Positions 10,657 to 60,319 of a stretch of DNA of 64,000 nucleotides are shown here, piece by piece. Position numbers and translations under genes: made by a program. The stretch comes from Yuukianura sp. NJ FZ-2021 (Eukaryota), in contig CM102290.1 in the NCBI GenBank assembly GCA_046563655.1, positions 2,170,001 to 2,234,000 of the forward strand, written 5' to 3'. The notes below the pieces were generated by a model. That model searched no databases. It saw only the letters and a list, made by a program, of their open reading frames with translations, and was not told the DNA's origin. The number at the start of each line of letters is the position of its first letter. Position 1 is the first letter of the stretch.

Positions 10657-10670
10657 GGCGGGAATTTCAA
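10657..10670 (+). promoter_or_regulatory. E2F-like site upstream of PIG-L
   Basis: GGCGGGAATTTCAA about 240 nt before the ATG; motif match only. Confidence 0.35.
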
Positions 10671-14876: not shown

Positions 14877-14887
14877 TTTCCCGCCAA
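14877..14887 (+). promoter_or_regulatory. E2F-like site upstream of SLC25A1
   Basis: TTTCCCGCCAA canonical-type E2F motif in the intergenic interval; motif match only. Confidence 0.35.
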
Positions 14888-31500: not shown

Positions 31501-31603
31501 AAACTAAAAAGAATGATGAATGAAGGAAAGCACAATGGGCTCGTTTTGTTCAAAATGGCCAACACATTTGTCGCATCTTTGAGTAGGAAGGAAAGAGTAG
31601 GAG

Positions 31604-31994
31604 CACGCCATTGTGTCATTTCAATTGTATCAACTGAATTGTGTCAACTGCTCAATTATGTAAATGGCTAATTGTGTCAACATTCGAATTGCTTCATTGA
31701 GCTTAAATTAGGATTGGCTCGGTTCGTTGACACAAGTATTCGTTGGTACAGCTGAACTGTGAGGTTCAGGGGCTCACATTGACTCGATAGCGGGGTGAAA
31801 GATTGTGTGGAAAAATATTGGAAACCGAGTGGGATTCGAACTCACGCCTTTTTTATCCGGGAAGGGTTCTAACCCTTAAGCTATTCGGTCCATCCTCCAT
31901 TATCTCTAGGACTGTTCTCAAACGCCACAGAAGGTCGATACAATCCCAGTTGATGCAATGGCAGTTGATACAATTCAATTGACTTAATGGCATG
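31604..31994. mobile_element. MITE with CAATTG/TCAACTG-rich TIRs (copy 1), interrupted by a tRNA-like insert
   Basis: CACGCCATTGTGTCATTTCAATTGTATCAACTG...CAGTTGATACAATTCAATTGACTTAATGGCATG; homologous to 51410-51597. Confidence 0.75.
31752..31891 (-). repeat. tRNA-derived repeat (SINE-like or pseudo-tRNA), copy 1
   Basis: Minus strand A-box TAGCTTAAGGGTTAGA, B-box GAGTTCGAATCCC, T-run, then ATGTGAGCCCCTGAACCTCACAGTTCAG shared with copy 2. Confidence 0.7.
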
Positions 31995-33562: not shown

Positions 33563-33994
33563 TTATTAAGTAGCTAAAGCTACTTTACGGATCAACCTTG
33601 TCTGTCTGTCCGCCCGCCACCAATTATCTCGGATGCGATTGATCATTCCTGGGATCCGTTTTCATTATTGAACACTTACAGTGACCTTGGGATGTTCAAT
33701 GTTGAATATCATCCCGGGTCAAAGTTCAAGGTCAACATGTTTTATCCCCGGTAACACGGGAAATGACCTCTGCAAAAGTTGTTCAGCTCATCGCTCAACA
33801 ACTTTTGTGTATATCATCATCATGTGACTCTAAGTTACTTCTTCCGGGTCAAAGGTCAGCTTTATCCTTTTTCCCGTTCATAAATAGGGTCCATTATGGG
33901 ATACTACTAGACATGGTGTCCCCCCAAGGTTTTTCGATTGAGAAATTAGACTTCCGCTACTTTCGTACACTCCGGGTTGCAACCGGATTTATTT
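33563..33994 (+). mobile_element. DINE-1/HINE-like non-autonomous Helentron (copy 3)
   Basis: TTATTAAGTAGCTAAAGCTACTTT, (GTCT)n, 3' subTIR CTTCCGCTACTT, terminal hairpin TCCGG-GTTGCAA-CCGGA then TTTATTT. Confidence 0.8.
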
Positions 33995-36900: not shown

Positions 36901-38096
36901 ATAATGCGAATTTATCTTATGATTTTGTTTTATCATTGCGTCGTCCTTTTCCGATTTTTCTTCTTAACTAGTACAGTGTGTATTCTTTTCTTAGAATTTT
37001 AAAAAAAATCATTGTGTACCTTTTTTTCTTGTTTTTTTTTTTAACCATTTCTGAATTTCTTTTAAATCACTTTGTACATTTATTTTGAATTCTTTTTAAC
37101 TTTTTGTTGAACGCCGCATGTACTCTTTGCTATATTTTTTCAGCCAGTTTATACATTTTTTGTGTGAATTTTTTGATCCACATTGCACATTCTTTTGTGA
37201 GTTTTTTTTCGATATGGTGGCGGAGAAAGTCAAAGCTCAACACGTCCGCTTTTCTTCTCGGTCCCTTGAAGCGGCCGACCACGTTCAAAACATGACACGA
37301 CTTTGTGACCGCACTCAAAGCGCCCACAAGAACTTCCCAAAAGAGAAAGTTCACTTTTGACATTGGAGGTGGGTGGGTGGGGGTGCGGAGTGCGATTGAT
37401 AATTTAAAGGCTCCTTTCATGTCAACGGTTTGTGGTGGACTTGGGGGATAGACGGAGAAACCTAATTGGGTTCGTGTGCTAGCCTACTTTTATGGAGTGT
37501 TTGTGTTATGGGAGACTTGAAAAGAGGCAGGGGAAAACACTGGGAATTACTAATGTTGGAATCAAATTGGATTCAGCATGGTAAAGATGGGATTAGAAGT
37601 GCAGAAATAGAAGGCGCGTGTGTCTCGTGGGACAGTTTGGGTTTAAGTGCGCTCTGACACTGTCCGTGTGGCTCCATTTTTACTACCACTAACCTAACTT
37701 TAGCTGGAAAAACTGACTGAGGTGGACAGGCCATTCGGTCGAACCTGCAATGTGAATTTAAAGAGAATTTGTGATTTGCAGTACAGTACGATTAGTTATG
37801 TATGACATGCTGCTAGTGATTAGATTTTTCTGGAAAGGTTAAGGTGTTCGGTGATGTTTAGCAGAAGTAGGAAAAAAAAATTGTTGAGTGGAGAATATTT
37901 GGTTAGATTTTGTTTTGGACTTTTAGATTTTTGTAGATTTTTAGAGTTGTACAAGAAGTTTTTTTTCTCGAAATTTTTCCTTGATAGTACAAGAATGGAG
38001 GTGCGTCTTTTGACTTTTGGCGACAGTCCCACTGCCAATAGCCAAGGATGGAGTGCTTGTTATTGTTAGACTACCGATCCCAAACTGTGTGATTAG

Positions 38097-38231
38097 AACA
38101 TGATAGCTCAATGGTTAAAGCTCATTCCGGATTGAGGAGATGTGGGTTCGAGTCCCGCTCGGTTCATTATTTTTTCTATTCGGTCACTCTTTGTCTCTCA
38201 AGCCATGTGAGTCCTGAACCTTATAGTCCAG
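38097..38231 (+). repeat. tRNA-derived repeat (SINE-like or pseudo-tRNA), copy 2
   Basis: TAGCTCAATGGTTAAAGC A-box, GTGGGTTCGAGTCCCGC T-arm/B-box, T-run, then ATGTGAGTCCTGAACCTTATAGTCCAG. Acceptor stem mismatched and anticodon arm irregular. Confidence 0.7.
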
Positions 38232-41200
38232 AACGTCTTTTGTTCAACTCCAAGCAGAGGACCATTCATTGTCCACTGCAACTATGGACCGTGTGGGCTC
38301 ACAAGGAGACGACGAGGTTCATCGTAATTATTTTCTAGTAGGATTTGATCTCTAGAGAGGCAGAGAGGGTTCTGAGAGTTGCCAAAAATGAGTTTCTGAA
38401 TAAAAAGTTAAGGAAAGGGCGAAAGCAGAGCGAGAGGCTGAATGGCAACAAAAGCCGAGTCGGAGAAAGTATGATGAGAGTTCGATCCTCGCAACTTCCA
38501 ATTTTCTTTTGTAACCCTAGGATTGAGGGCACAAAATGGAGAAAGCACCCTCTCCTCTCAAAAAGGACTATGGGATCCGACATGGTCTCAAATCCAATGA
38601 AATCTTGTACTTTCTCCATTATCCTTACAGTCTCTGACATGAATTGGTCCTTCAGAAGACTAAAAACACAAGCCTATAGGACTATTCTTCATACTTTTCT
38701 CCGATAAAGTAATTGACCTCGTTTGACCCTTCAGTGGATTACTCGATGGATTCAAAAATTTGACCCAATTTTGGACAGGAATTAAGCTATTCTTCTTTTC
38801 TTACTTTTTTTTCGAAAAGTTCAACACTTGGGAAAAGTTTCAATTGGTTCTCCATGAAAATTGAAAAGAAAATATTTTTTTTGGATATGAATGGAAAATT
38901 TGGGTGATGACGGTTTGGGTTTTCAGAGAAAGTTTGGGAATGGATGTTTTCAAAAAAAATGAAAGTGGACTAAGAGTTTTTTTTTTTGAGTTGTCAAACT
39001 GTGCGATGAGAGATATTGATGATGCTGATGTTTTTTTCTTTTTTGAAAAACATTTTTTTTTGTATAAATGCTGTTGTTGAAGATTGGTGTAGAATTTTTT
39101 TGATTTTTTTTTTAAAATCGTTCTTGGAAATTCGTCACAAAAGAAATTTGTAACAGTTTACAAAAGCATTGTGGCATGATTTAAAAAAAAAGTGTTCTTG
39201 TGCCAGGAACTTTCAAAAAGATTAGCTTTTTCTTGGATGACAACAATGGGAAAGTTCAGGAACACATTTTTTTCGTCAATGCCTCAACGTGTTTTCACAT
39301 TTTGTAAGACTTATTTTTCCGGTTTTCGTGCAAAAGAAACTTTCGAACAGTAATCTTTGTCAACCCGTTTTGAGACGAAACCTGTTAGAATCTCTTAAAC
39401 TTTAAACTTTCCCTCTTTTCCATAATGCATTATGCAACAAAGATTTTCAAGCTGGTATGCCAGTTCTAGGAACATTTTGAACCTCGGAAGCAGCTTTCCA
39501 TACTTTTGCGGTGGGAGTACTACTTATGTGGAATTTTTGAAAAAAGAATTTGAATATGATTTTTGTTTTTATTAAAATAAGTGAATTTGCGACTTAAAAT
39601 TGAGATGTTAGTTTCATTTTCGAATTTTAAGTGAAATTTCTTATGAGGTTTGGGAACTTTTTGGGTTATCGATCATGCTGAACCTAATGTATAACGTACA
39701 TATAAGGTAATGCTGTGTGTAACCTAGAACAGGATGCGTGACCTTTTTCCTGGGGCAACGTGAGACTGAACTTGACAGGTCAACGCGGGAGTGATAGTTT
39801 TGAGGAAGACAGTGAAAGTGAGACGCTCAAAAACCCATCATCACTCTTCACATAATGGAAGTCATGTTGGCCCCTTGTGGAAGGTTAGGTTAAACTAACC
39901 TAAAGTAAATTTAACTTAGATCGCTTAGACTTTGGGCATTTTAGCTTTGAGCTTTTCCGTTTTCTCCGCTGCCACCGCAGCGGTCATCACCGTCTCAGAT
40001 GACATCCGGAAAATGATAACTGGGGTGCTCTGAAGTATGCGGTAATGTTCACAACAAATTTGAGTGGCGCCAAGACAAAGGAAAAGTAGGTCACTTCAGG
40101 TTCACCCGCCAAAAAAAACTGTTTGGATTTTCCTCATTTTGTGTCTATTTAGAACCGTTAATGGACTTGCCGCTCGAAGTTGTCTCCAAAATACAAAGTT
40201 TTGGAGGGTTGAAAAGGAAATTCTTCTTTGCCGGTGGGAATTGTTTGAATCTTTGGTGTGTCAATAAAATAGGGTTCCTGTTTTCCCGTGTCTTATACTC
40301 CAGGGACACTGACAGATCACTGTGCATAGTTGGGCACGGGGATCAGTGTCGGGAAATTTATGTGTTCTCCGTGGAAGGGGTCACTCCCTTTGAGGAATAC
40401 GGCAGGAAGGGCCTCATTCATTTGAAAGTTGGAGAAAACTCCGATTCTGGGAAATAGAAAGAAATGGGCATCACGGGACACTGGCAACTTTTTCGTTTGC
40501 TTTTCCCGGTTTTTCTTTTAAAAGAACTTTCAGTGGGAAGGAAGCAGACGATTTTTGAGACTTGTCCTTTGCTGCTGCTTGAACGTATTCTGGTTTTATT
40601 CAAATGTGGGCGCCCGGAACTTTCTTTTCCAACGGTAGCAAAGTTTGTTCGGGTTGCGCTCAAACGAAAAGTTAATGTGGAAAATTTACGGAAGTGAAGG
40701 CGGGAGGGTTTTTTTTATGTTCATTATTTTAGAGCACACGGTACTTTTTGTTGTTTTTGAAAATTCCCTGCATTCCGACAATTTGAAAATGAAGTTGATT
40801 TTGGATAAAATTCGGCTAGGTCAATGACATTTGCCAGAAACAGTTTTCATCGGCGGTACTTTTTGATTCAAACGTAGTTTTTTGTTATCGAATTTATTTT
40901 TAATATGGTTAGAAAATATGTGGCAGTGTGGTCCAGAAAATACCGCCAAATTTTACAATTTTGTTTGCCACCTTTAATTAATTTTTTGTTATAAAAATAG
41001 CAACGAAAGATATTTTTTTTGGTTTCTGAATTAGTAGGGAAATGTTTTTTTTTTTTGAAATTTTGAAATTTGCGCTATAATCACTTTTAAAATTTTTGCA
41101 CAAGGAGCCTGACCATTGACGGATCTTAAGAAACTTCTCAAAATGAAGCTGAGCTGTTCGGCGTACCAAGCTGGAAGCTGTTCCTACGCTCAAAAAATTT

Positions 41201-41822
41201 TGAGTGGTCATACGCATGTTCAAAATTATGGAGCAACAAGTTCAACAGCCAATCCCACTGGAGAGTCAACTCATGGACTCACTATGCCTTCCTGGAAGGT
41301 AAGTTTGAATTTTTACTTTGCCTTTTAGAATTTAGAACAGGTTTTATGAAAGTCTAGAATTTGGCCGGAGAAAATTTAAATTTTGAAACAAATTCTGGTT
41401 AACGGAGTTGCGATCCTGTAAGTTAACAAACTCATTTCCGGTTTAAATGTCCTTTCTAGCCGGAAATTTGTAGCAGCATGTAAAGCTGTTTTCTTTTTTT
41501 GGAGAACTTGTAGTTGGGCGGAAGTTTTGAATGAACTTTTCCCTGTGCTATTTTTGTTTATGAAAGTGGGATATTTGTAATTAACTCACGTAAATTGAAC
41601 ATTGAGTAGCAGAAGTGAATTATTCAGTCTCTCTGGGGAGTTAGGAGCAGTGATTGATCATAGGAACTAGATAGGAAAGGTGTAGGCGACACATCTTCCT
41701 GTGCCGTGGCGGTTCTTTTCAAAAAGAGAGTTCTTGAAAGTGACAAATTTCTCATTTGTCGAGTATGACTTTAATGGTTTTTGGCATTAGAGATGCAAGG
41801 TACTAAAAAAGGATTTTTATTT

Positions 41823-42255
41823 TTATTAAGTAGCGAAAGCCACTTTATGCATCGACTTTGACTGTCTCTCTGTCTGGGCGCTGGCGGCAATTATTTTGGA
41901 AATGGCTCAACATTTCCGGGTGACCTGTTGGTGTTCACTATTGAATATCATCTCGGTGGGTCAACTTTGTCCAGGTCAAAGGTCAAGGTCTACCAGTTGT
42001 AAACCCGCTTAACTTAAAAAATGACATGTGAAAAGGTTGCTCTTATCGAGGGAAACAGGTTGTGTGTACAGAATTTATATTTTTCTGTTTTTTCAAGTGA
42101 CCTCATTCCTGGTCAAACGCCAATTTTTTTCATTGTACCTTTTATCACCATAGTGCGTTATACTACATCATGGTTTGCCCTCGTGAGCAGCCGTTTGCGA
42201 ATGCAGCGCCATTTTTCGCTACTTTTGTAAACTCCAGTTTACGACCGGTTTATTT
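41823..42255 (+). mobile_element. DINE-1/HINE-like non-autonomous Helentron (copy 4)
   Basis: TTATTAAGTAGCGAAAGCCACTTT, degenerate GTCT repeat, 3' subTIR TTTTCGCTACTT, GTAAACT-CC-AGTTTAC hairpin, TTTATTT end. Confidence 0.8.
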
Positions 42256-45200
42256 CAAACATTTATGAAGCATGTCGTGTTTTTTTGTTTTTAATTTTTG
42301 GAAATTAATGGAAATTAATATTTCAAAATATTGCAAAAAATTTATAAAAAAAGAAAGGGAGTTCTTTTATTTGACGTTGGTTGACTCGTTTAAGCGGACA
42401 CATTATACGTAGAAGATGAATGAAGTTTTAGTGGGAAATTTGAATGTTGAATACGTTTTAGTGGACAATGAATGTATGGCGTCGCTTCCTCTAAATTTCC
42501 GCCTTTCCGTTTCTGTCTTCATCTCAATTGTCAAGCGTCTCAATTTTAACGTTGACTCTGTCACTTTTAAGCTAAAAAGACTTCATTCGGTCGGATCCAC
42601 TGCGGAAAAAAGTTTTTGAAGGTGATGGATTGAAGTCTTAAGAAAAAAAAGTATCACTAAACAGAGAAAAAGCTTTCTCTTTTTTATGCTCGAAGGAAAT
42701 CTTCTGGGAGTGGAAGATGTTGAGTACCGCAAATCTTCGGATAAGAGGCTCAATGTTGTATTTGTTGAGTGGGAGTTTGGAGTTACTTTGTATTTAGTAG
42801 AAGATGATATGATTCTAACTCTTACATTTTTTGGAGGTTTGCGTTATTTTTGTTATTATAACAGATGAGACATATAATAGAAGTCGATAGTGATGGTTTT
42901 AGTGCTGTAGAGGGAAGTAACTTTTTCAGCTCCTGAGAGGTAATCACTATAAGTGAAATTGTAAATTGTTTGAATGTCATTTGCGTAATGTACGAAAGTT
43001 GAACGCACTTTCGGATTTTATTTTCGGGAAAATTGGTTCTGAGGAACTTTTTCTTTGAATTACTACTATATTTCAGTCTTTTCAGTGGTTTGCCAATTTC
43101 AATTGACAGTTTGCGCAACAAAATTTCATAACAAAAGTTTTTGATTTACGAAAGGTTAAAGTTATTTAACGAAGACAAAATTTCACAAAAAATAACGTTG
43201 CATTTAAAAAAAATACTCTGCTGTTATAGTGGAAGCCTTAATGAAATTATACTTTCCATTAAGGCAAATTAAGCCTCTGGAAAATATTTACTGCAATAGA
43301 AAGCAGGCACGAAAACAGGAAATTAAAAATGTCTATTTTTATACCTAAACGCTCCAGCTTCTTGCGTTTGATCGTGACCTTTTGGTGACTTAGTTAAAAA
43401 AGGATGTTTTTTTAAGTCGTCGCTATCTGCAAGTTTTAGTAGAAATGTGACACAAATCGGAAATGAACAGCGGAAGTTTGGTTTCGGTTCATATTGAATT
43501 CTAAATGGAGAGAAGAAAGTGGAAGGGGGAGGGCAGGGGGTGGGCACTCCAGAATTCCGCAACTGTGAAATCCGCAAAGTAAAAGATCAAAGGGAAAAAG
43601 GAAAGCTGAAGTGGAAAGCTTAGGGTTAGAATAACTTGAACATACCATTTGAACTCAGCAGTTGGAAAGCTGTGTGGCTAGCTGCGAAAGCTACTTCTTC
43701 TTTTTTAGAACTTTTAGGGAAGAATGATCATGTCCAAAACGGAGACATGAAGCATTCGTATTTAAAGGAAATTTTTGGAGTGAAAAAAGACGGAGAATGT
43801 AAAAATCCACTTGCAGTTGAACTATTCTTTTCCTAGTTTCTGGTTGAGTGCGTCCGTTGTCTGAAGTAATTCTTCTGAAAATGTTCTAATTTTTTAAGAG
43901 CCTGGAAAAAACGGGATTTTTTTTGTTTCAATTCTTTTCGGTGTGAAGAAACTAGCGGATCGGTGTACTAAAAGTTCAAGTGGGGAAAAAACGGTAAAGT
44001 TTTTGTCGTTTGCCGGTTGAAGAAATTCTATGGTTTTTTGTGGGTTTTAGAATTTGAAGAATTCTTTTAAACTTGTGCGAAGAAAAGGAAATACTTTTTG
44101 TTTTTTTAAAGGTTTAGATTAAGCGTTTTCGGGATTTTCTTTTTTTTTTGCAGAAAAGTGTTTTTGAAAAATTTGTGTCAAAAGTGAAGGCGAACGTGGA
44201 GAAAGGAAGACACTAATGCCATCATGTGCTGAAGCGGAAATTGGAATGGGTGCACTGCTGTTGTTGGTTTGATGTATGGTTTGAATTTAGCTGAGAATTC
44301 AGAGAAAGCGACTTCACCCGAGTAGCTCCGATGGCTTTCTCCGACCATGTGTTTCACAAAAGAGTTAATAGAGGCCTTGGTCTACTTCAATTTCCGCACT
44401 AAACTATGCTTTTTGAAAAAAAAAATTAAAAAACCCAACGTATTTTTGATTCCACCTTCAACATTTGAATCTCGACGTAGACCAGTTATCTAAACCTAAA
44501 AATTATTTATGACCTTGTTTTGTCAGGAGCACTTTCACTTTTTTTGGTTTTCTGTTATATTGGTCTTTTGTACAGTTTTTGTTGTTATAATTTGAATCTT
44601 GTTAGAATTGATAGCATTTTTGTCTTCTTTGTTTCCGAGCACGGTTTTGAAAATGATAGAATATTTTTTGTCATACTTTTTCATTTTGCTGAAATGTGAT
44701 TTTTTTGGAAAGCTTTTTTTACTTCTTTTTTTATTTTCTCCGCCCTTTTTAACTCTTAAGAATTAAATGATGTTTTTTCGTCTTTGTTTAAAAATGAATA
44801 GGACGGAAGTTAACAATAGAAGTCAAAACGTTAGCAATTGAGTAAGCGGTTTTTATAAGAGTTCAAAAACCGGAATGAAACTGAATTCCGGAACTCCTTA
44901 GATTTTTGTAGTTTTGGAAGAATGTTGAGGCGGGAATGGAGACTTGGAGCGGATGCGTAGCAGAGTAATTGGATTTCGAGATTGGAATCAGTTCCGGTTT
45001 TAATTCTGAACACGACTTCCTTCCGTCGTCCAATATTCCACTTGATTAGAAGCTCCTCCGATTTACTACTGGCGGTTTTTCTCAAAATCTCCCGCGTTGA
45101 GAATCTCCAATTTCTGGAAAAGAAGATGAGTTGTTGGGCTTTATGCTCAAACCGCAATGTTCTACGTGAAGTTGTGAAGTTAGAATGGAGAATTCTAACA

Positions 45201-48200
45201 TAGCATTGCAAACACTGGACATGACTTAGTCAGCAGACTTGAGAAAAAATAGTTACTCCTGCCGTGACTTTCATTAAAATCGGTGCGAAAATTTGTCTAC
45301 AAAAAATAAGTTTGTAATTTGTGGATATTTTGTTATTACAAAAGCTTTAAGAAGTTAGTTTTTGATTTCGTGCAAAGTCTGTTCTGATTTTGTAGCAACG
45401 TGTTTCGGAAGCTTCTGCTCTTCAAATTTTTTTGAGAAGAAAGTATATAGGACGTGTTAAGGTCAGGAAGAGAGAAATGTTTCCTAATTGCGGCAACTAA
45501 TGAAGGTTATGGAGTCAATGATTGTTTCATTGCTCCTTTGGCTCTGTAGTTTCTGTTTTCTCCAGTTTCTTGTTAAGTTTTTTTCTAGTTTCGTGTTAAG
45601 TCTAGACATTTTGAGTTTGTTGTTATTAGACACATTAATTTCTCCTACGTTTGAGTTTGCACTTTCACATTAAGGGTTGAGTTATTGTGCTCCTGGAGTG
45701 TGGGCCATTTGTCCAGGGAGCAGAGGCACGTAGGAGTGTAATGTGTGGCCATCCGCATTATTCATTGAGTGCTCGTATTTTGAGGAAGGATGAGCATGGA
45801 GGTCAGAGTGGGTGGTTCCCAAACCAAAATTTTGGTAGAAAATAAAATAGAAACAGAACGAATACGTAGGCCATAAAATCCCGGTACTAAAAACTCTCGC
45901 CTGCTGCTTTCCTCCTGCTGTTCCTAAATTTCTAAACTATTCAAACGTGGTTTTTCCCATAGGAATTGTGGGTTGAGACACTCAAAGTCTCCAATTGATT
46001 GGTCGGGTCTTCAATTTCAAGCTCTTCAAAAAAGTACGCAAAAAGAAAGGAGAAACAAAAACAAGTGAAAGTAAAGTGAAAGCGACAGGAAATAGCGTTT
46101 TTGAAATTTTGAAGCAAAGTTGTGCTTAACACACTTTTTGTTTTTTTTTCCTATAGAGTTCTAACTTTTTTTTGTGATTTGATATTATGGCGCGTGGTTT
46201 GTAAACTAAAGGGAGACTAAGAACCTAAAATATGAAAAATTGAACATAAAGTTTGAATGGAATTTTGGTTTTTGTGAAAAATTGATATTAATTTGAGTGG
46301 GAGAGGGAAGATGATTCTTGGGTAATAAAATGACTTATGGAGAAAGGTGTGTCTGTAGGTTTCCCATAAATCAATATGTGTTATCCCACTTCTTCTGAAT
46401 TTACTTTCTTTCTGCCCTCATCGTTGTCCGTATTGATTTCAAATGGCTTTCCTTCCTTCATAATTATTGGAAGAAAATAGTAGGTCCAATTCAACTTACA
46501 CAAAATATACTCCAATATCCATTTCTCCTACACGCCTAGTTCTATTTTTTTGGCACAAAATCAATTTTTTTTTGCCCAAATTCTCCAAAATCACTTTGTT
46601 TTATAAATACATCGTTATTTCTGTGTTGGGCGATGTGAAGAGAAAAGTTGACATTTGACATAAAGAAGTACAATATTGTGGTCAATGCATAATGCAAAAA
46701 AAATGGATTAACGATTATACGAATTATACAAAATTAACAAGGTTTTTGTTTGGAGTGGGATAGGCTAAGCGAAACTTTTCGATAAACTATTTTTGGAAAT
46801 CGGAATTTGGAATTTTTCGGATGCTCTAAAACCGAGTTTTAACAAAAAAATTATAACGAACGGTTTTATTTTTTTCCTGCTTTCACTTTTTGTTGTTCAC
46901 GTTTAGTCTCTCTCTTTTTGTTGGGTTCAGTTTTTTTTTCCTCAAATATGTTATGCGGGAAGTGTTTGATGGTTTCTTGGGATTAGTTTTCGGAAGTTTA
47001 ATGTATTCACAGCAGGACGGGGTATCACGATAGCATCCATCTCCTTCCCTGTCAATTCTAATAGCAAAAGTGACAACAAAACCCGCTCATTTTGAAACGT
47101 TTGAATAAAGTGAGTCGAGCCGAATATAATATTTTAGTAGGTTGGAATCTAAATGCTCTTGATCGTGTCAGAATGCTACATTTATGAAGTCGAAACTTGA
47201 AAATGCGAGTATGACAAGTAGAAAATTGAGGAAAATGGGGATACATTTCTTTGAGTTTATCTCGTGTATGTCACTTGAACAAAATATCTGGAGTGTCTAT
47301 TATCCTTCCATTAGAGGAAAGTAGATTAGGTGGAAGCAGAGAGGGGGTGATGGACTGAGGGGATGGCGAAAGAGAGGGGGCGAGTGGCGAAAGCGGGAAG
47401 ATAAGGAATTGCTTTCTCTACAAAGTTTTGGAAATAAATCTTGGAGGAGCACGAAGGAAAGTGTGGTACTTCGTTCTATTTTGAAAGTGGCGGGTGTTCT
47501 TGTCTGCTGTAGAGGTTTCAGTATTCTGTTCCTGAAATAAACTGACTCAAATGGAAACATAATAGATTAATATGCGACATAGGGTAGGTCGGTTGGGCAG
47601 GTAAGGTCGATTATACTATGTTAGTTGCCAACTTTGGAGAAAGTGCGCCACAATAGTGTAGTATGCTTTTCCATATTGAGCTGATTTAATGTAGTCGAAA
47701 CCCTTATGACTTTGTGGATCGTAATGACCTTCCTTGGTCATAATTTACGTTTTGGGAGAAAATGATCTTCTTCTCGCCCTCGCTTCTGGAACAAATTTTA
47801 AGTTTACGCGCCGAAAGTTGAGAGAAAACGATGAGAATCCTGAGCTGCATTTCTCTTGTTGAGTAGCTTAGTTTTCCTATGGTTTTTGGCAAAGAAAACA
47901 ACTTTTCTTTTTTGGAAATTAGTGTTAAGACCATGAACAGAAAAATTGAATTTGGCTCAAGCTTTGAAAATCAGTTTACATAAAAATACAGCCACGAGTT
48001 TTTGCGGAATTTGTAAACATTTTTTCCATATTTTGAAAGAAAAAGTGTAAGTAAGGAATGAAAAATGAGCGAAATTAGTTATGAACAAAAAGCATGGGAG
48101 TGAATAAGGACAAGAAGGAAAATGTCAAAGGGCGCCAGTAGAGATACGTCATTTCGGATCATTAATCTTTGTCAGTTTTTTTTTTTGTTCTGAAACAATC

Positions 48201-51200
48201 AGAGGCCGATCTTTTGTTTTCTTTTTGTTGAAAGTGTCTCCAAATTCTAAAAAAGTGGGTCATCAGATCAGATTAGACGAAATCTGTTTCCTAGGCACTC
48301 CAAAAGTGTGTAATTAAAACACGTTCTACCGTGTCTTAATTGTGACATCTCGTGAAACATGAGACGTAAATTGTAAACCCAAAACGTTTAAACGTGGAAA
48401 CTTAAATCGTAAAACGTGAAACCTAAACTGATCAAAGCAGAAAACATGTAGCGAAACCTGACACGTTTTTTGGGGTTTAAAAAGAAACGTTTTTGTCACA
48501 GTAGAAAGTATTTGAGCGTGAAATACGAATTCCCGCTCAAATTTTCAATTCTTTCGCCGTACAAATGATCTTATCAAACACAGTGTTAATTTTTAAATTC
48601 TTATTAAGTTGTCGTGTGTGCGTGAAATGCTTAAGGAATTGAGTTTTTCACACGCTGCGTTCCAAATAGTGGCGAACATGCACTAACTCTTACACACGGA
48701 TGAGTAGTATTTGTCTTGAAAGTTTCTTTTCATCTGTTTTTTTTCCTTTAGAAATGCTAGGATAGGGAGAAAGTGAGCTTCATTTGGTAAAAAAAAGTCA
48801 TGAGGGAGCAATCGTAAAGAAAAGCGTGGTTAGCTTGATCTGTTTTGACCTCTAAAAGTTTTGTGCTGGTAACTGTCATTCTAAAAGGCAAAAAAAAAAG
48901 TTTTGAAGTGCGAAGGGGAATTGGAAGAAAAGATGAAAGTTTTGACAACTGTTTTTTTTTAAATTTGTGTAATAGAGGTTAAAGTTCGTCGGTTTGAAGC
49001 AAAGAAATAATATTTTTGACTTTTGTATATCTTGAAGCTTTCACTTTTTTGTGAAAACATACCCTATTTTCAGTTTTCGATTTTGTGGATCTGTTCAATC
49101 TAAAAATTTAAATTTTGGTGCCATTTTACTGGCGACAGGAACATTACAGTCGGAATCAGTTTTATTGAGTGAGTTTGAAAGTGAATGTGAGAAAAACATA
49201 GCTTGGCTGTTTTGGGGGAAATCTTTCTACCTTTCAACAACGTCTGCGCCAGTTTGAAAACTCTTTTTTTTTTCAAGATTTGGAAAAAAAAAATCAAGCA
49301 AAAGCAAGTATAAAGCTTCTGGAAAATTTGGTTTGGAATTGTTAGTTTTTGGATTTCTTGGGCCTTTGCGGCTTTTGTTTGCTGATGAAGATCTATTGTC
49401 TTTTGAAGTTCCTTTGAAAGTCTTTTAATCAACTAGAAATCAATGGAGCAGATAAATACAACTTCAAAGTCTTTTTGGAAATACTACCAGAGTAGTAGTG
49501 GATCCAAATTTAAGTGTATGGGATTTGGAAAAAAGGAAATGGAGAGTCAGTTGACCACTCACGCAGTGACACTTTGTCTCTTAGCAGCCTTTCCAATAAT
49601 GTCCAAATTCAATTCCAAACTGTCCATTTCCTACTTTCTGTCAAGAACACTTTCACCACAGTCACAGCAACAAAAAAAGTACTGCCAAGCACTCCAACAA
49701 ATTTCTACGAATTAAAAAATCTACTTTCTTTTATTTGATGCAATGTATTTCTAGTCGCATTTTTGACTAAAATTTCAAAATTTGGCTAGGCAAGGTTTTT
49801 AGTGTTTAGACCAACGTGTAATTTTCATTTGCATGGACAATTTTTTTGAAATCATTGTAGGTTTTTTGTTTTAGTTACTCTTAAGTTTTTGAAAATTGTT
49901 AGGCATGTTGTCTGTTGTTTGTGAAAAGTTGAATGTAAACTGCTTGAGACGATTGAGTTGAAGCAATTTGGTGAGAGAATGGAGAAAGCTTTTCTGGAAA
50001 TCCACTCCGTTTGTTACTTGAATCTTTGGAACGTAATCCAAAGGTCTAAATTTGTGTTGTCAGAAAAACAGAAATCCCTTGTGTCCTGGCATGAACTTTT
50101 GTGAAACACAGAGTATGCTCATTTGAACTAGGCCGTTTTACGTCAGGTTGGGTTACGTTTTATGTTAAGATGAAGTGCAAAATCCCATCTGAGAGGTTTT
50201 ACTACCTCCAGATCCGACGAGCAGATTAGAGAGAATGGGCCACAAAGAGAAAGTGATAATAATCAAGGAAATCGTGGATTTTCAACAGATGAAACGAATT
50301 GGACCCAAGCCAGATACTTGGAGTGTCTGTTTCCGTTTCTAACCTGGAATTACACAACTTTTTGAAAAGTTCTACAAATTTTGAAATTTTGAAAGAAAAA
50401 CATTTTTGCTTCTGTTCTAAAATTGTTGTTGTTCATGATCAAAAGTTTGTTACTAAGTTTTTACTCGGCTGCCTTGACTAAGAAATTTTAGACAAAAAGT
50501 TCAAATTTTGAGTTAGATAGGATTGCCGTTTGTATTTTTTCCGCGTCTGCGTTTTTTAGGTAAATTTATTTTGTGTCAAGCCATATTTGAATGTTTAGTT
50601 TCTAAGCCAGTGTTTTTACTTGACAGATTTTCAGTTTCTTGTGACATTCTTTTATGTTCATAGTAACCTTGTAGACTTGGGTTCTTTTTGGAGGGACAAA
50701 GATGTTCGTTTTTTGGGAGGCGGTGTCATGTCCATGGGCCTCCAGACCATGACAAACAGAGTGCCAAAATCATGAAATGCAGTGAACCAAATTTATTATG
50801 CTCCTGGAAATTCCTAAATACACGTCCTTATTTATCCTGCTCCCTTTGAATAGCTGTCCAGAATAAAGGCAGAAGTGGGTTATTACTTTGCCTAGGAACG
50901 GAATAGCTCAAAGGCTACAAGCTTCTAGCATCTCAGCATCTCATAACAAGGACGAATGGAACATAAAACTGAGAGTGTGGATTTTGTCAGTACTCTAAAT
51001 GTGAAAACTTTTTTGATTTTTCTGAAGAAAGTAGGTTTTTCCCTTGTGCGGAAGAAGTTTGCCACTAATCAAAGCTCGGCACTTTGCAATCCACGCTCTC
51101 CCGCTCTTTACAACTGCCGAACTCAGCGCTCACAATCGTGCAGTGGAGAAGCGCGACGGGCGAGCAGTTCTTTCTTTCAAGGGACGGGCCTTCTCACCAA

Positions 51201-51409
51201 ATTTGTTTCGAGGGAAACGACTGGGAATGGCTTAAAACTGTAAAAAAATGTAAAATCTACGAAAAAAAAATTTTTTTTTTGAACAACGAAATTGGCAAAC
51301 ATATTTTTTTCCCGTGTCCACTTTCAGAAGCTTTTTTCGCCCTGCAGTAAAGAAAAGTTCAAAAAAGCCGATAAACGTGCAAAGTGGGGACGGGGAGTGT
51401 TCCCTGAGA

Positions 51410-51597
51410 CGGAGCATGCCATTGTATCAACTGAATTCTGTCAACTTGTCAATTGTGTCAACGGTTAATTGTGTGAACGTGTGAAATGCTTAATAATTGA
51501 GCTTCGGTTAAGTTTGGCTAGGTTCGTTGAACGTTGATACAATTCCCGTTGACACAATTCAGTTGATGCAATGGCAGTTGATGCAATTACACTTCCG
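51410..51597. mobile_element. MITE with CAATTG/TCAACTG-rich TIRs (copy 2, no tRNA-like insert)
   Basis: GCCATTGTATCAACTGAATT...AATTCAGTTGATGCAATGGC inverted termini; internal similarity to 31604-31994. Confidence 0.75.
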
Positions 51598-54500
51598 ATT
51601 CTTTCAACAGCATGGGAGCGGGGGGTTGGTGGAAAAGCTTATGGATTGCAGGAACGAGAGCGGATGGAAAGTGCCGAGCTATGACTCAAAGTAGTTTCAT
51701 TTTGTCTATTTTGGGATTTATTCAGGAGAAAAACTCCCAAGGATTATTCGAATTAGAGAATACTGTGCAAGGGGAAAGGGGGTTAAGGGGGTATATGCTC
51801 CTTTGAGAGTCATCCACTCGGAAATTACTTACCCCGCCCCCTAACGTAACATAAATCCGTGTATAAGGTAACCTTAGCAGTAGTGTAAGCGTCACGGAGT
51901 GAAGGTCATCCTAGATAGAGTTGCATTTTATTAGGTTAGAATCTCCGGGTTTACAACCTTTCCCATTTCTTGTTCACTGAGTTTTTACAGGATGTACCCA
52001 AAGATTGAGGTGAAAGTTTTTAGTTTCCTTGTGGCGTAAAAGTTTGTGAAGATGGGAAGGTTTGTGAGTCAGACAGTACCCAAGTCTCCGCACATCATCA
52101 TTGCATTCCATTAAGGTTGAGGCTGAGCGTAGCTATTGCATTAGGAAGATGATTCCCACTGGAGAAAGGTAGTTCCGCACCTTTTCTTTCTTGTTCTTCC
52201 TCCTCAAAATTTTGGCTGATGCCTTCTGGCTCTGAGAGGCTCATGGTTGAGGAACAACAGGGCCTCAGAACCCAGAAAGCCAGAAAGCCTCTTGCGATGC
52301 TCTGGTTACTGGATGCTTGTGGACGGAAATTTACGAATTGGTGAATAGTAGACCTACCAAACCGAACAGATAGACAGCAATTGTGGTGGAATTTGCTGGG
52401 AAAAAGTTTATAACATGTTGCGTTTGATAAAGCTACTAGATGAATGTGCTAATAGTACAAATGTATTTATATATTTCGGTCGAAGCTGTGCATTACGTTC
52501 CATTCAAAAGTGTCCCGTAACAAATTGAGGCATTCGGTCACGGTTTGATAGCCAAGGATAAGGCGAAGTGAAGCCTACTTTCTCCTGGCCACACTTCATG
52601 CCTTTCAATTTTTATTTTCTGTTGGGGGATTCCCGCAGCTGGACTTTAGTTTTTTTTTTAGATTTTAACTAGAAAAGAAGAAAAGTTAAAAAAAATCAAA
52701 ACACTTTAAGAAAAAGTAGAAGAGGAACAAAAAACAAATATTTGTTTCTCGTTATGATGGTCCAGCTCTTTTGAATTTATACTGAAGCAGGCACAAAATT
52801 CAAAAGTAGATTTGGAATCAAAACTTTCCAAATTTTTGTATCATAAATTAAATTTTAGCAAGACGGGAGAGTGGTTACAAAGTTGAGAATTAGTTAGAGT
52901 TTGTGCTTAGTTTGGTGTTGATGAGTATAATTTTTAAATGTGTTGGGATTCAAAAGTTTGCCCAAAATGGATTCTTTTGTTTTCCTTATGGAATTTCGTA
53001 CACTGAGTATTTTTGACTCAGAAAAGCCCTTTTCTCTTTCTTTCGACCGCACATTACTAAATCAAAGGCTGGATCTGAGCCAGTTCCAGAAGCAATCTTT
53101 CAAAAATGCTTTGCAGATCAATCAATTCCTAAGTCTCCTCATCCCTCACTCGTTAAATCACAATTACTCAATTTCTGTCTTATCTAAAACCTCTAGAGAC
53201 TTTCCAAATCTACTCAAAAACCTAACTTATGTCTTGTTTGTGATCGACCATTGGATTTCCTCATTTTCATATTTCCAAATCTGCTTTGATTTCAAAAAAA
53301 GCCAAAAAAATGAAAATTTCTCCCAAAAATTGAAGTCTCTTTTTGAGCAGGATAATAACGGAACCAAAACTATTTTTAAAAAAATGAAACTAGGATTATG
53401 CATAACAATCAAATGCGCAAACTTCGGCAACTTTTTTCCCGTTTTTGTTTGGTTAAGAAGTATATGAGTCGTTTATTTGAAGTTTTCCTCTGGTCATGTT
53501 GTTAGGCCGTTTAACGTTTGGGCGGGAACTCTATTTTTGAAAAGCTCCACTAAAGTATTATTGATATGGTCATGGAATCGGAAAAGAAGTTTTTCAGTGG
53601 GCCAAAAACGAGTTTTTTTTTCGTTAGGCCAAAAAAGCGTTTTTTTTGCGGTAGTGGGACTTTCTCCTGCGCATACGAGTGGAGTGAAAGGTTTTTGAGC
53701 GCTCATCCCTCTCTGTTGGCCCGTAGGAGACGTAAGGCTTTCGGTTAGGTTTTTGTGGAGGAGGGAAAGTCTGAAAACCGTGGGAGTGCATCGAGGAATG
53801 CAGAGAATTGTGGATGAGCCGCTCAAATCGTCTTGGGTTGAGACGTAAGTTGGTAGGGTCGAACGTTAGTGTCTCCTGTACTCAAAATGTCTCATCCAGA
53901 AAGAGAGTCTAATCTGGGGAGGCGTTGAATTTAGAAGTCTAAATTCGAGGCAAGTGGAGAAGTGACATCGTTTCTGAGACAAGGAAAAGCATTAGGCCCC
54001 TTGCTTTCACCGTACGTTAGATTAACCTAACCTAACCTTTAGGAGGCAGAAGGAGGGGCGGTGGGAGGTAGAAAGTGGATGGAGTACTACAGGAGAAGAG
54101 AGAAAAGTTGTGAGGCCGTAGTGGTCGTTGTGGTTGGAATTCCGTCGGATTACACTAAAGCCGCTTTCGTCATGAACCTAACCCTACTGTAGTGTGAAAG
54201 TGTAAAGTGTGTAACTTGAGATTCAGAACATTACGTGTGAAAACCTCAAAGAGTGTAATTTTATACGGCGGGATACGCATTTCAACGAGGAGGTCAAGAG
54301 GTTATCAGAAGAAATCAGAGACAATGGTCACGTGAAAACGTTGTGTGAGAAGGGAGTTGGCAGATTGTCTCCGGATCACGGTCCTGCAAATTGAATTTTT
54401 TTTAGAAAAAGAAAATTTCCCGCGGGAAATTTTTGTTCTTTTTAAATTTTCATGCGACTTATCCGGTTTAGTGTTTTTTGAGAATAGTAAGGAGAAAGGC

Positions 54501-57500
54501 GGTTACTTTTCGTGAAGGGGGATAACACGAAACGATTCAATTAAGATTGTAAAGTGGTATAATGAAAGGGGTTCTCTGGGAGTCTGAGAACTTAAGTTTC
54601 AAAAAAGCGGGTAAAAAATAGTACCTATTCAAATTTTTAAGTTTTTAAGACTGTTCTAAACAGAAATGGAAAAGAGGATTAGTATAGAAGACAGGGTTTG
54701 ACACGTGTAAAAAGAAAGTAGAAATGAGGTTTGGTTGAGGAAATCTGAGGAAAGAGAAAGTGAAGGCTAGTGGATCTTTTGGATTTGCATTTATATTCAT
54801 GCAGCATTTGGTGGGTCTAGCGGTGGGTACTTTTTGGTGGAGCCAAAGTTTGTTCAGGTGACTCCTAAAGGAAAAAAGACGAATTGAGAGACGAGCCGTG
54901 AATAATGGAAATGTCCCACCACTTCTTCCTCTAATCAGCCATCGACCCCATTCACACAGCAGTCCACTTTCTCCCTCATCCAAACAGTTTTTTCTTGGTC
55001 TAAAAAGGATTTTTTAAAAAAATGAAAAAAGCGAAGCCAGGTGAAAATTTTTCTAGTTCTGGGGGGATTATTTCACCAGACCAATTTATCTTTAGCACGA
55101 AGAGTTTAAAAGAAAGAAAAATTGGGAAAGCTATCTGCACCGGAATAATTTGAATCTAACATTAAATCTTCCAAAGGTCTCGCTGAAGTTTTATCTCCTT
55201 TTTTTAATCGTGAAATTTTGAAGGTTATGGGAAATAGGGAATTATTAGTACGGCAAGTTCAAAAACACGCTCTGCTTAGGTCACCTCCATTTTATAAAAT
55301 GAAGGAAGAATTTAAAATTCACAAAGAAATTGGGCCATTTATTTTTTAAAAAAGCAGGGCAGGGAAAGCTGCTGTGATTGAGTTGAATTCTCAAAAATTC
55401 TTTCGCCCACTTTTTTCCCTTGCCTCATGTCTGCCTTTTGAACGTACTAGTGAACGTTATGCTCTTAATTATCCATCTCTTGCTATACGATGTTCTAACT
55501 TATTCAAACTCTTTCGCCTCAATCAATAAGCCTACAACGTTTTCTCCCTTTTTTTCTCATTTTAACCTAAAAACACAAATTAGAGCTTACACAAAATCTA
55601 GGTTTAACTAAAAGCAAGTCTTTGGCCTTAACGTCAATATTTCCTCTCAATCCAAAGTAAAAAATTGCTCAGTTTGTAAATTAGTTACCTGGTTTTACAA
55701 TATTTTTTTAACGTCGGGTTAGGCTAATTTTGACTAAACTTTGTGAAACTGAGGTTACTAAGCATGTTGCTGAAACTGTAACTTTGTGTGGAGGTAGAGG
55801 ATTAATCTTCTGTATTCAGACGCGGAGAAAACAGAGTTGGGCAGATACGATAAGGCTCCTTGAGCTGTGGACGAAACCTTTCAAATCTGTTTTCTCCTTC
55901 CGGAAATCCTTTCAATTGGAACAGAACTTAATTTAAAGTCACCGCCACGAATGGAGGGAACAGCGCAAAACTTAGTTCCATGCCCAACTCTGTAACGAAC
56001 CGTAAATAACTCCAGTGACGGGTTCGTTTAAGCACCTTGAAGCTTAATTCTTCCTCGGTGACTTCTCATTAATTTGTTACATCGTGTCGATCTCACTAGT
56101 TTCAGACTCCGTATTAACTTCGTTTCACTTTTAAAGTTTTTGACAAAAAAAAACAGCTTTTTTTGGAAACCAAAATTATGCTTTGAATGAAAACCAAAGG
56201 AATTTTTTCGTATGAGTTTGACATAAACTTTAAAGTGTTTTTGAATGTTTTTGGAGTGGGTGAAAGTCAAAGATTTCGTTTTTTTTAAACCATCAGTCTT
56301 TACCGACGTTATTTCTAAATTATTATTGAAGAAGTTGTGAGGTAATTAACGGCGTTAATTGAGATTGGCTTTCAAATGTTAACGGAGGTATGAACTTTTC
56401 GAAATTGAGTTTCTGTTTTATGTAGAAGAAAAAAAGTCGTTGTGGAAATTATGTTTTGTAACATGCATGACAAACTAATTGTAAAATGGAGTTGGTCTCT
56501 TGGGATGTCGTCGTTTCCTCATGCCTTTTACTCAGATTACTTCCTCCAAAGTGAATCATTTAATTTAACATGTTCCCGCGTTTCATCATCATGCGATTAA
56601 ACAATATTGGGAAGGTAGGTACGTTCCTGCGTAGTTATTTAGGACCACGTAAGGTGTCGGAGTGGCAGGGTTTGAATTGACTATTCAAATATGATTTTGA
56701 ACTGCCCCGGTTTCTTATTGTGCCTTTTTTTGAATCCGCCGCCGCCTATCCAGCTATACAAAGCAATACAGAAATTGTAGTTTCCGAAATATTTCCAATT
56801 TTTGTATCTAAAACGGGGATTTTTTAGCAGTACAGATTTTTTGTATGTTACAAAGCAAATTCCAATTGAGTGTGCTATGAAGGTAGTGAATGAATTTCTA
56901 TGTTCGGTGCCTTGCACGATCTTATTTTGATAACTGTAAAAAATTTCGGATTTTCTTTTGCTTTTGTAAATTGTGGTTTGTCTAAGTGGGTTGGGACGGC
57001 GTGCCAACCTGACAAGTGACTGGATAAGAATTAATAATTGGAATTTGAGAAATCGAATTTCGACTGAAATGGTTTTTTGTAGATTTTTTTTTTTGGAAAA
57101 GAACAGTTAGTTCAAATAGTGTTTGTTGGGAAGAGTAAATAACTCGGAGGAATAAGGATCTCACTTTCATTTCTGTCAACTTCATTCTGTCAGCCTACGT
57201 CCAAACTGTCAAACTAAAATACCCTTATCTGTCATACACAATAATTTCCATTTCATTTTCGTCTTTTTTGAGAATTTGTTTTCATAATTTTTCAATTTAA
57301 TCCAACATGACTCCATCATGCGGGTGGTAATTACTTTTTGAGAATTGTGGATCAAGGACGATGGCAGACAACTGGACATTGTCATCCAACGGACAACAAA
57401 AAACTAAAAACTTTTGTTGTTACAAAACTTTTTTTATACAAATGCCAAACGACACAAAAGTTTAAGCAATGCAACTCGGGCTAAATTTTTGTTTGTCAGA

Positions 57501-58638
57501 CTTTGTTCAATTTCTATTCGAAATGCTACTTTTTCCTTTTAAACTTTTGAAAAAAAAACACGGAGCAAAATACCACAAGAATGTGCTGGTTAGTTTGTCA
57601 CTTTTTCAATCCCTTTAACACCTTACTTTTTTTCACTTTTTGGTTGTGTTTTTTTTTTGTGTAAGAGGAAATTGATGGAGCCAAAAGTAAAAAGTTTACT
57701 TTTCTTTTCCATAGAATAAATATGACTCTGTAATCCTGGGATGTGAAAGTTTAACTTGTTAAGGAATGGCAGTGAATGCAGAGAAAATGGCAGCAGTTTC
57801 TTTTCTGAACCCTCTACGTCGGTTACATTCGATTGATATTCTTTGCCTAACATTTTTAGACCTAGGTTTGAGTGTCACTCATGCTAACGTTTCGAATTAC
57901 AAAAACCGTTTTTTGACTTTTTTTTTTTGAATTTGAAAGTTCCTGGTAAAAGGAGGAAAACCCAGGGGTCCAGTGGCGTAGCAAGACTAATTACTCGGGA
58001 AGATCCAGACTACAAAGGGGTCCAATAGCCTAATTGATTTACAATATACCATACGATTCGTAAGTAGGCAGAAGTGCATTGGGAGTTAGGCGAAAACTTT
58101 TCGTTGACCTATGACATTTGGAAGAGTAAAACAAAGTGAAAAGTGTGCCTAGAAAGTAGTTAAAGTAGCAGTTGGGGGTGGTTCATTTGAATTCAAGTAC
58201 TTTGTTTGGACGTGATCTACTGGTGAAAGTAGGGTAGTAATAGTCTCTTCCTCTGCTGTTCCCCATTCTGTTTGCATAAGTTAGCAAGTGACTTTTACAA
58301 CAAGTCGTTCATTTCGAACCTACTACCAATTTTAAGAGGTTCTCAACTTGGACTAACTTGGTCTAAACGACTGTTTAGAATCACTTCTGTATCCACTGGA
58401 CCAAGTAAAATTGAATAGGACGTTTAATCCTTGTTCAGTTCAACTGAAAGTGGGCGTGGCTTAGTTTACTAGTCGCTAGATTTGAAAATATAACCAACTA
58501 GGCAATTCGTTCGTACTTACAGGATGATAATATTGACAATAGTAATTCTTGTTATCTGCTGCACTCATGGAGTTTAACCTCCGCTCTTTGTATTTTCGAA
58601 TCCGAGACTCCGATTGTCACTATTAGTGGTACGAAAAG

Positions 58639-58729
58639 CGTACATGAAGTCCTTGTGACTAATTTTTTTCAAAGATCTCTTTGGTCTGGACAAGTCTGTG
58701 TTCTCTTGAGATAGAATGGAATGATTAGG
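58639..58729 (-). repeat. 91-bp perfect inverted copy of zinc-finger gene exon segment 4088-4178
   Basis: Base-by-base reverse complement match CCTAATCATTCC...CTTCATGTACG; translates to the identical peptide PNHSILSQENTDLSRPKRSLKKISHKDFMY. Confidence 0.97.
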
Positions 58730-60319
58730 AGGGTGGCAGTCAACACTGTGTGGGTACAACGGATTTAGGTTTGGTTCACTCACACGAAGAGGACACAGCC
58801 ACCAAAGTTATTATATGAGTGACAATACAGTAAGCCTGTGTCCATCCTCAAGATAAGTGAACCAAACTTGCATTTGTTGTAACCACGCAGTGTAACCACC
58901 GCCGCCATTTTTGTAAACAAATATCCCGCTGAAAGTAAGACTAAAAATAATTTTTTTTTCCGCGAGGTGTGAGAGCTGATGTGAATTTATGAAAAATGAA
59001 GTTGTTGATCGGAAGATTTTCACTTTAAATTCAGAAATCGCACTTATCCAATACAATATCCAATATCCAATTAAAAAATCGAGAAATCGGATTAGTTTGA
59101 GACACCGGTTGTAATTTCAAAGACAGTCCCCACACCAAATTTTGAAAAAAAAATAGAAGTGTTTTTTTTTCTTAAAATTTTGAACATGAGTTTCTTATAA
59201 GAAGGTTACATAGTTTGGAATAAGGTGTACTAATTAAGCTTGGTTTGATGAAAATGCAACTTCTGGCGAAGTTTTGCATTTTGCAACTTGGAGATAGTCT
59301 GTTAACCTTTGTTAACCTTTTTTTTCTTGCGAGAAAAAAAGCTTTAGTAGCAGGAGAAAGTCAGTGAATGTGTTGACGCCTCCTTTGTGTGGAATTGTGA
59401 CCTCAGCAACTTCCCGACAATCTGCCAACAACTTCATTCTCACTAATTCCACTTTTTGGAGGAAGAAAGTGAAAACGTGGAAGCCAAAACAGTGTCAATA
59501 AGACTCCGTTTGACATGACATGACTTCTACTATTTTTATCCCTGGAAAAAGAAAAACACAGATTTTTTCCAAGAAAGAAAGAAATGAAAATGAAACAAGA
59601 AATCAGTGAAACGAAATCAACGAAAAAGTGGCGTAACGCAACAAAGAAAAGTTCAGCTGAGAACTGTGACAAATTTGAAAGAAATGTACATACAAAAGAG
59701 AAACATTGTTGGTTGGAGATGTGACCCGGTCATCAAACGCCGTTGACCTTTGACCTCCATTTTTTTGTTCAACGGCCGAACTGAACTAACTTAAACAATG
59801 TCAACTTCGAGTCAGTTTCATCGTGGGAGACAGCGAACGCGCTACAGATATTTACCAATTACGCTCAAACCGGCAAGTTCTAAACAACAAACTTTGTTTA
59901 AGTTGAAAGTTTGATGAATTTTTAAACATTTTCTCAGAAGGTGAAAGTCTGTTGTACAATATCAAAGACTGAGAAGGTTTTTTTAAAAGAACTTCAAATT
60001 TGATAAACTTTCTTTTTAAAAATTGATTGATGATCCAATTAGTAAATGTAGGGCTATAGATTAGTTAGTGGCAGAGAGTTTGAAAAAATTGGGGAAGATC
60101 GAAAATGACAAGGTTAGAATTGCTCGTGCCGTATGAATATTAAAAGAATGCAATCAAAAGTGTTATAAGAAAGGGCGCCAGTTCTTGAATTTAAAAATCC
60201 GTGCACATCATCACCTTTCTCCAAAGCTCATTGATGAAAAGATTCTGTTCAATTTTTTACTGTCAAAAACGAGACAATTGACTCTTCTGTTCAAACTTCT
60301 TCTGCCTTCACCCTATCAA

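Follow-up and report, generated by a model that had tools for sequence, protein, structure and literature searches.

An exact antisense copy of a zinc-finger exon segment beside a foldback repeat in gene-poor DNA, consistent with templated repair of a chromosome break

In plants, repaired breaks and transposon excision sites receive filler copied from elsewhere in the genome, in patches that measure tens to hundreds of bases and often lie beside transposon ends. A different use of gene-like sequence is known from small-RNA biology: the silkworm Fem piRNA targets the zinc-finger gene Masc, and in mouse oocytes endo-siRNAs are derived from pseudogenes. Among the templated insertions of the human genome, class 2 TSIPs were described, in the part of the report considered here, as having neither target-site duplication (TSD) nor poly(A) and as carrying features of end joining, and the inserts obtained experimentally at induced breaks measured 73-414 bp (PMC5110952). 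Reverse-transcribed RNA was proposed as the template of the class in the same part of that report (PMC5110952). In C. elegans, polymerase-theta end joining of germline transposon breaks leaves small deletions and short inserts copied from close to the break, as far as the excerpted account goes (PMC4490562). Breaks in yeast can receive insertions from distant loci, of which the complex ones often consist of two inverted pieces of one locus, and the portion of that work used here reports such distant insertions from repair-deficient mutants (PMC11724301). The copy described below was found in a window of 64 kb, which is the whole stretch of DNA that was analysed, and has points of resemblance to each of these systems.

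Over all 91 bases, positions 58639-58729 of the plus strand match the reverse complement of 4088-4178, as established by a script check and by BLAST of the window against itself (E 4.9e-42). A sequence-only reading of this DNA had reported the same exact antisense copy of a gene segment, and the observation is confirmed. Donor and acceptor are 54 kb apart on the same chromosome. Sharp boundaries had been described as well, and in fact the identity ends abruptly at both borders, with 5 of 30 positions agreeing on the left and 8 of 34 on the right, which is about random. Likewise, the statement that poly(A), terminal inverted repeats and a convincing target-site duplication are missing holds at 58639/58729: direct reading of the flanks found no poly(A) run or poly(A) signal at either end of the copy, the two junctions share neither a visible target-site duplication nor a direct repeat of at least 5 bases, and no enclosing terminal inverted repeats rise above chance-level pairs (22 nt at 73-77%). 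A sensitive short-word search found no third copy of the 91-mer in the window, and its 45-base core gave no matches in metagenome_contigs. Furthermore, the copy is, as had been noticed, the only traceable capture into this region; apart from a dispersed repeat of about 50 nt, it makes the only long-range pair between gene-rich and gene-poor DNA in the self-comparison of the window at E<=1e-5.

The donor starts on the first base of codon 429, in frame as had been claimed, within a reading frame that is uninterrupted, and the donor site is intact. For the protein encoded by this frame, 5.8 billion proteins were searched and two proved to be homologous over the full length, with 51% and 47% identity (E 0 and 2.4e-296), and Pfam zf-C2H2 matched it at a sub-threshold 22.4 bits (cut-off 25.2). 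In the three-sequence alignment, invariant residues make up 21 of 31 in the donor block versus 438 of 1161 overall, and about 18% of all 31-residue windows are conserved at least as well as the donor block. Judged by these alignments, the source is a real gene and the donor block ancestral coding sequence. Because the block is conserved at the protein level in both homologues, the copying ran from the gene into the gene-poor DNA, which is the direction proposed earlier. The neighbouring genes within the first 17 kb are all on the plus strand and code for PIG-L, SNF5, a PHD-finger protein and a mitochondrial carrier; among the members of the best protein-atlas cluster for SNF5, Arthropoda are commonest, which is a weak hint at the taxon. 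The zinc-finger exon also contains a 24-base tandem repeat of 5.1 copies at 4926-5049, which encodes similar 8-residue units and is absent from both homologues (alignment columns about 775-800).

Table 1. Features of the donor gene, the copy and its surroundings, with the contigs that reach the copy
Feature	Position	Strand	Basis or remark
Host gene, C2H2 zinc-finger-like protein, stop-free frame of 1161 codons	2804..6289	+	two full-length homologues; many conserved C/H columns
Donor, codons 429-459, large exon of the zinc-finger gene	4088..4178	+	in frame within 2804-6289
Gene-poor stretch with G>C and T>A	18001..60000	+	GC skew by 2-kb bins; no Pfam, Rfam or tRNA match
40 bases directly left of the copy	58599..58638	.	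possibly co-inserted filler; one X1 contig passes over it along with the 91-mer and AG
Acceptor, 91-base copy of the zinc-finger gene	58639..58729	+	antisense to the gene on the + strand; 91/91 identity; both junctions on contigs of X1-X4
Two bases AG between copy and foldback	58730..58731	.	read directly from the sequence
Foldback (MITE-like) repeat, 169 bases, imperfect inverted arms	58732..58900	.	arms 82% complementary, strong fold
Left-flank contigs	ending at 58668, 30 bases into the 91-mer		X1 record 6, X2 record 9, X3 record 22, X4 record 26
Right-flank contigs	starting at 58700, 30 bases before the 91-mer end		X1 record 7, X2 record 11
Separate contig of the copy	exactly 58639-58729		X2 record 10
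Loose ends continuing into the donor flanks	58639 and 58729		X3, X4

The reality of the copy was examined in four public runs that contain the acceptor region, all kept as contigs built from 31-letter words. Three of them (X1, X2 and X3) come from one sample and are possibly the data from which the window was assembled; the fourth (X4) comes from another study, with another year and another organism label. No single contig piece among those listed covers the entire stretch compared, and X1 is without cover over 55000-55969. The sequence-only reading had named the lack of reads across the junctions as the sign of an assembly artefact; both junctions are in fact carried by contigs of all four runs, and hence by two independent studies (records 6, 7, 9, 11, 22, 26 and 28). 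That flanking contigs end 30 bases inside the 91-mer (Table 1) is the behaviour of a 31-mer graph at a two-copy repeat. Record 9 of X2 is a contig of 24,648 letters that reaches the left junction, with the gene-poor stretch continuous over about 21 kb up to that point. In X2, where the 91-mer forms its own contig, its depth is 115.7 against 81-95 for the flanks, and in X4 the shared piece has a depth of 53.5, close to what the donor path (50.8) and the acceptor path (7.6) give when added. Both values fit the donor plus one acceptor; the 91-mer is not a multi-copy element, and the occurrence at many loci as part of a transposable element, named earlier as fatal to the claim, was not found.

Perfect identity with razor-sharp borders is also the look of a chimera, and a chimeric read or a mis-join might have put gene sequence into the gene-poor region, above all if X1-X3 are the source data of the assembled window. 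Against this, the X4 contigs that carry the two junctions (records 26 and 28) differ from the window at other sites. Moreover, the left junction occurs on two SNP backgrounds within the first sample: record 6 of X1 shows 0 differences, and record 9 of X2 has C>A at 58584 and T>G at 58595. An assembly artefact is thus largely refuted and is left with next to no probability. A separate observation concerns coverage in X4, in which (records 25-31) the contig leading into the zinc-finger gene has a depth of 50.8 and five contigs from the gene-poor DNA lie evenly at 5.6-8.6. For this sevenfold gap there are three possible causes: the library could contain RNA or be enriched, that organism could have more copies of the gene segment, or the cells sampled could under-represent the gene-poor DNA.

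The copy ends two bases before the first base of a foldback repeat. The arms of this repeat, at 58743-58780 and 58856-58893, are complementary at 82% over 38 nt with pairing that extends to the ends, and its fold energy of -77.5 kcal/mol (z -8.4) was equalled by none of 200 shuffles. With terminal inverted repeats, small size and no coding capacity, the foldback bears the marks of a MITE. Contigs of other loci (records 12 and 13) agree with its arms in part, with loose ends at 58877 and 58916, and the summed contig depth goes up over 58686-59267 in all four runs; for these two reasons the foldback belongs to a dispersed repeat family. The transposon label is provisional, because the flanks (AG on the left, GC on the right) show no target-site duplication and the window contains no second copy.

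A possible form of the locus without the insert was encountered in X1, where one contig (depth 151.8) joins 58598 to 58732, exactly where the foldback begins. Left out by this contig are 133 bases, i.e., the 40 bases on the left, the 91-mer and AG. The shorter side of this joint has only 24 letters, with the letters between the two sides recorded as 'not known', and the joint was not seen in X2 and X3, which are of the same sample as X1. The insert is present in X1-X4 and its possible absence is recorded in X1 only, by one contig. A mixed state fits the depth of X1 record 6, which is 155 versus 194-221 for neighbouring contigs, and a mixed sample fits the 91-mer depth in X2, which is well below twice the flank depth. 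If the joint is the empty form, arithmetic on contig depths indicates that the sample may be mixed, with about 45% insert carriers; the X1 depths, on the other hand, sum badly, 155 plus 151.8 exceeding the local total of about 200. The chances that the joint is a true insert-free form are about even.

The 40 bases on the left of the copy were compared with the rest of the window, and only matches of 10-11 bases were found as a source. One of them is a 10-base identity of 58610-58619 with 4208-4217, which lies 30 bases past the donor end and has the orientation opposite to that of the 91-mer. This match, seen in one of eight comparisons, is suggestive of a two-piece inverted patch but not significant, being reached by 9 of 500 shuffles.

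Other alternative forms occur on both sides of the copy. In X1-X3, 530 reference bases at 57095-57626 and 200 at 58961-59162 are exchanged for 38 and 15 letters, respectively. The replacement letters have no source in the window: an 11-base repeat unit taken from them gave 0 matches, and the one match of the 15-mer, with 2 mismatches, was equalled by 54 of 100 shuffles. From these replacements so near to the copy, it follows that the stretch often changes by deletion or by break repair with filler.

Compared with the window, the haplotype of X2 (records 9 and 11) shows 28 differences in 5473 letters and that of X4 (records 25, 26, 28, 30 and 31) shows 48 in 5222. At this difference of 0.5-0.9%, arithmetic gives 0 mismatches in 91 bases in about 40-60% of cases even if the insert is as old as the haplotypes, and perfect identity over 91 bases bounds the divergence only below about 3%. 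The earlier argument that zero mismatches imply a recent event is therefore unsupported, and the copy is shared with the second study under another organism label. In X4, a shared contig ends at 58702 and two contigs start at 58673, one leading to the acceptor flank and the other to the donor flank. The simplest reading, taken from contig ends and not from a displayed base, is that the X4 acceptor copy would differ from the donor at about 58703. The copy has probably persisted long enough to occur on several haplotypes.

The surroundings of the copy, from about 18 to 60 kb, have no long frames and few internal repeats. The 150 longest stop-free frames between 17.3 and 64 kb were compared with Pfam, and not one reached the curated cut-off; they were taken from 277 frames with a minimum length of 55 aa, and the smallest one tested had 66 aa. 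The copy had been described as sitting among other coding-like fragments, a description that this result does not bear out. Rfam at gathering thresholds gave 0 matches in the 64 kb, the tRNA search of the window gave 0 as well, and no 10-bp periodicity of A/T runs was found. The composition is one-sided. The GC skew lies between +0.07 and +0.22 in 20 of the 21 bins of 2 kb over 18001-60000, the bin 20001-22000 being at -0.008, and ranges from -0.11 to +0.08 in the bins of 1-18000; T exceeds A in all but two bins of 18001-60000. The skew comes from runs of T followed by G. A long transcription unit and a giant intron are possibilities for the 42-kb skewed stretch.

Several repeats were recorded in the same analysis. 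A dispersed repeat of about 50 bases, with copies 85-91% alike and in both orientations, occurs once between the PHD-finger gene and PIG-L (10318-10371) and three times in the gene-poor stretch (28507-28565, 33563-33612 and 41816-41874). A composite repeat at 20101-21079 has 2.2 copies of a 176-base unit (20389-20777) between two arrays of a 32-base unit, and these arrays, at 20231-20389 and 20806-20960, are in inverted orientation with about 83% identity between the arms. At 60856-61529 lies an 11-base satellite of about 62 copies with 89% match; where it begins on the left, the contigs of each of the four runs together reach 10 to 50 times the local depth, which marks it as a high-copy satellite of the genome.

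Based on the above, the 91 bases are probably a templated patch, or filler, from the repair of a break at the end of the foldback. A patch at a break is argued for by the exactness of the copy with its sharp borders, by the intact donor and by flanks that share no homology, while the position of the copy at the very end of the foldback suggests that the break occurred there. In the proposed sequence of events, the chromosome would have broken at the outer end of the 169-base foldback in non-coding DNA, cut either by a transposase at the repeat end or by a nuclease at the base of a hairpin or cruciform. A free 3' end may then have found a template by invading the zinc-finger gene, at a distance of 54 kb, or by annealing to a nucleic-acid fragment from that gene; after copying 91 bases it would have dissociated and been joined to the other end of the break without homology. 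The 40 bases before the copy and the 2 after it could be further filler of the same event. The donor gene would be left intact, and the product would be a heritable structural variant that is probably neutral. What counts against a patch is that the insert-free form is one contig of one run, with any microhomology at the junction hinging on a secure empty site, and that the 40 bases on the left are without a template found in the window. That donor and acceptor lie close together does not argue for copying in cis, as a donor outside the window would have gone unnoticed.

The template of such a patch might have been RNA, in which case the zinc-finger mRNA would have been reverse-transcribed by a retroelement enzyme and a fragment of the cDNA ligated into the break. 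The donor is exonic and would be in the mRNA, and the features of the copy match those of class 2 TSIPs, which the part of the source considered here attributes to reverse-transcribed RNA (PMC5110952). However, the donor lies in a single exon of 3.5 kb, so that a splice junction cannot reveal passage through RNA; there is no poly(A), and the Pfam search of the 150 longest frames found no reverse-transcriptase remnant in the window. Because the donor lies within one exon, DNA and RNA templates are indistinguishable at the locus, and the RNA-derived variant of the patch is considered unlikely. Slightly less credit is given to capture by a transposon (transduplication), in which the 91 bases would be the cargo of a Pack-type, Helitron-like or enlarged foldback-related element. 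The copy does abut a foldback with relatives elsewhere in the genome, and the 133-base block 58599-58731 acts as one unit in the X1 joint. The fragment nevertheless lies outside the foldback arms, neither a pair of inverted repeats nor a target-site duplication encloses it, and there are no further cargo-bearing copies, because the depth of the 91-mer equals the donor path plus one acceptor path (53.5 versus 50.8 + 7.6 in X4; 115.7 versus 81-95 in X2).

A role in small-RNA production was also considered, in which germline transcription of the plus strand would turn the antisense 91-mer into piRNA or siRNA repressing the zinc-finger mRNA, and the copy would be kept for that purpose. Transcription of the plus strand would make the copy antisense to the gene; beside the copy lies a hairpin that folds strongly and might serve Dicer as a substrate; and the copy occurs on several haplotypes while still matching at 91 of 91 in the window. 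The skew over 18-60 kb, with G>C and T>A on the plus strand, is of the kind that transcription-linked mutation bias gives on the non-template strand in mammals, but it is far stronger than known transcription-linked skews and stems from the T-runs followed by G. Full identity is expected by chance at 0.5-0.9% diversity, and the X4 copy has apparently already changed, so there is no sign of constraint. No transposon or other protein remnants were found in the 150 longest frames, unlike in known piRNA clusters. Nematode 21U-RNA loci have an upstream motif, which in the window is neither enriched nor biased in strand: its 8-base form occurs 0 times on the plus and 2 times on the minus strand, and its 6-base core 31 versus 34 times. 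A small-RNA function of the copy is therefore regarded as quite improbable. Still less probable is the conjecture that the 42-kb stretch is a new type of one-strand germline transcription unit that has no recognisable remnants of transposons, in which the 91-mer and the hairpin would feed small RNAs tuning the zinc-finger gene. The foldback two bases past the copy, which the sequence-only reading had overlooked, gives a simpler explanation than small-RNA capture. What stands of that earlier interpretation is a real and unique antisense copy that went from a gene into gene-poor DNA; its recency and its coding-like neighbours are unsupported.

If the patch reading is true, the locus shows cleanly how, in nature, a patch from a nearby gene was used to mend a break, and the donor and possibly the empty site can still be read. 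It would also be a useful marker and one data point on the frequency of such patches in the germline of the animal. The copy would matter far more only if it were transcribed and processed into small RNAs acting on the zinc-finger gene; a small-RNA unit of that kind would be a cis-linked, gene-derived regulator with a logic comparable to that of silkworm Fem and Masc. The copy carries no sign of function and is probably neutral.

In comparison with the known systems, the locus resembles Fem/Masc and the mouse endo-siRNA loci in being non-coding DNA with sequence complementary to a protein-coding mRNA, and it differs from such sources in that its surroundings have no transposon remnants typical of piRNA clusters. 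The dense transposon fragments, mostly in one orientation, of a uni-strand piRNA cluster were not found, with 0 of 150 frames passing the Pfam cut-off in a protein-level search and few internal repeats; a nematode-type piRNA cluster was rejected on the counts of the 21U-RNA motif. The locus does not have the layout of Pack-type transduplication, the gene fragment not lying between terminal inverted repeats and having no flanking target-site duplication. It also lacks the features of a class 1 TSIP or LINE-mediated retrocopy, for which a TSD of at least 5 bp, a poly(A) tail and a TTTT/A site are all absent at 58639/58729 and at 58599/58731. With the filler of plants the locus shares a copied patch beside a repeat end, although excision or cutting of the foldback would here have to be supposed. 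In the literature consulted on templated insertions, a gene fragment captured like the 91-mer is not described, which is said of those sources and is no claim of absence from print.

The polymerase-theta scars, as described in the excerpted account, are alike in being germline and heritable and in having a copied insert with minimal homology (PMC4490562). In reach and length they differ, the 91 bases having come from 54 kb away and having no match in the local flanks, whereas that account places the template close to the break (PMC4490562). The identity of 58610-58619 with 4208-4217 would fit the two-piece inverted pattern of the yeast insertions, as portrayed in the portion used, but the match is not significant (PMC11724301). 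The class 2 TSIPs, by the part of the report considered, share an insert identical to a distant sequence, an intact donor and the absence of TSD and poly(A), together with extra letters at the junction, a length (91 to 133 bases) within the range of 73-414 bp, and possible polymorphism (PMC5110952). Their end-joining marks, as listed there, would be matched by the 40 + 2 junction bases if the X1 joint 58598->58732, seen in one contig, is the empty site (PMC5110952). Unlike the human insertions presented in that part, the copy is found in another organism, with a donor only 54 kb away on the same chromosome and the insert at the end of a foldback (PMC5110952). In conclusion, the copy is most likely a known kind of event, an ordinary scar of break repair rather than the product of a new mechanism.
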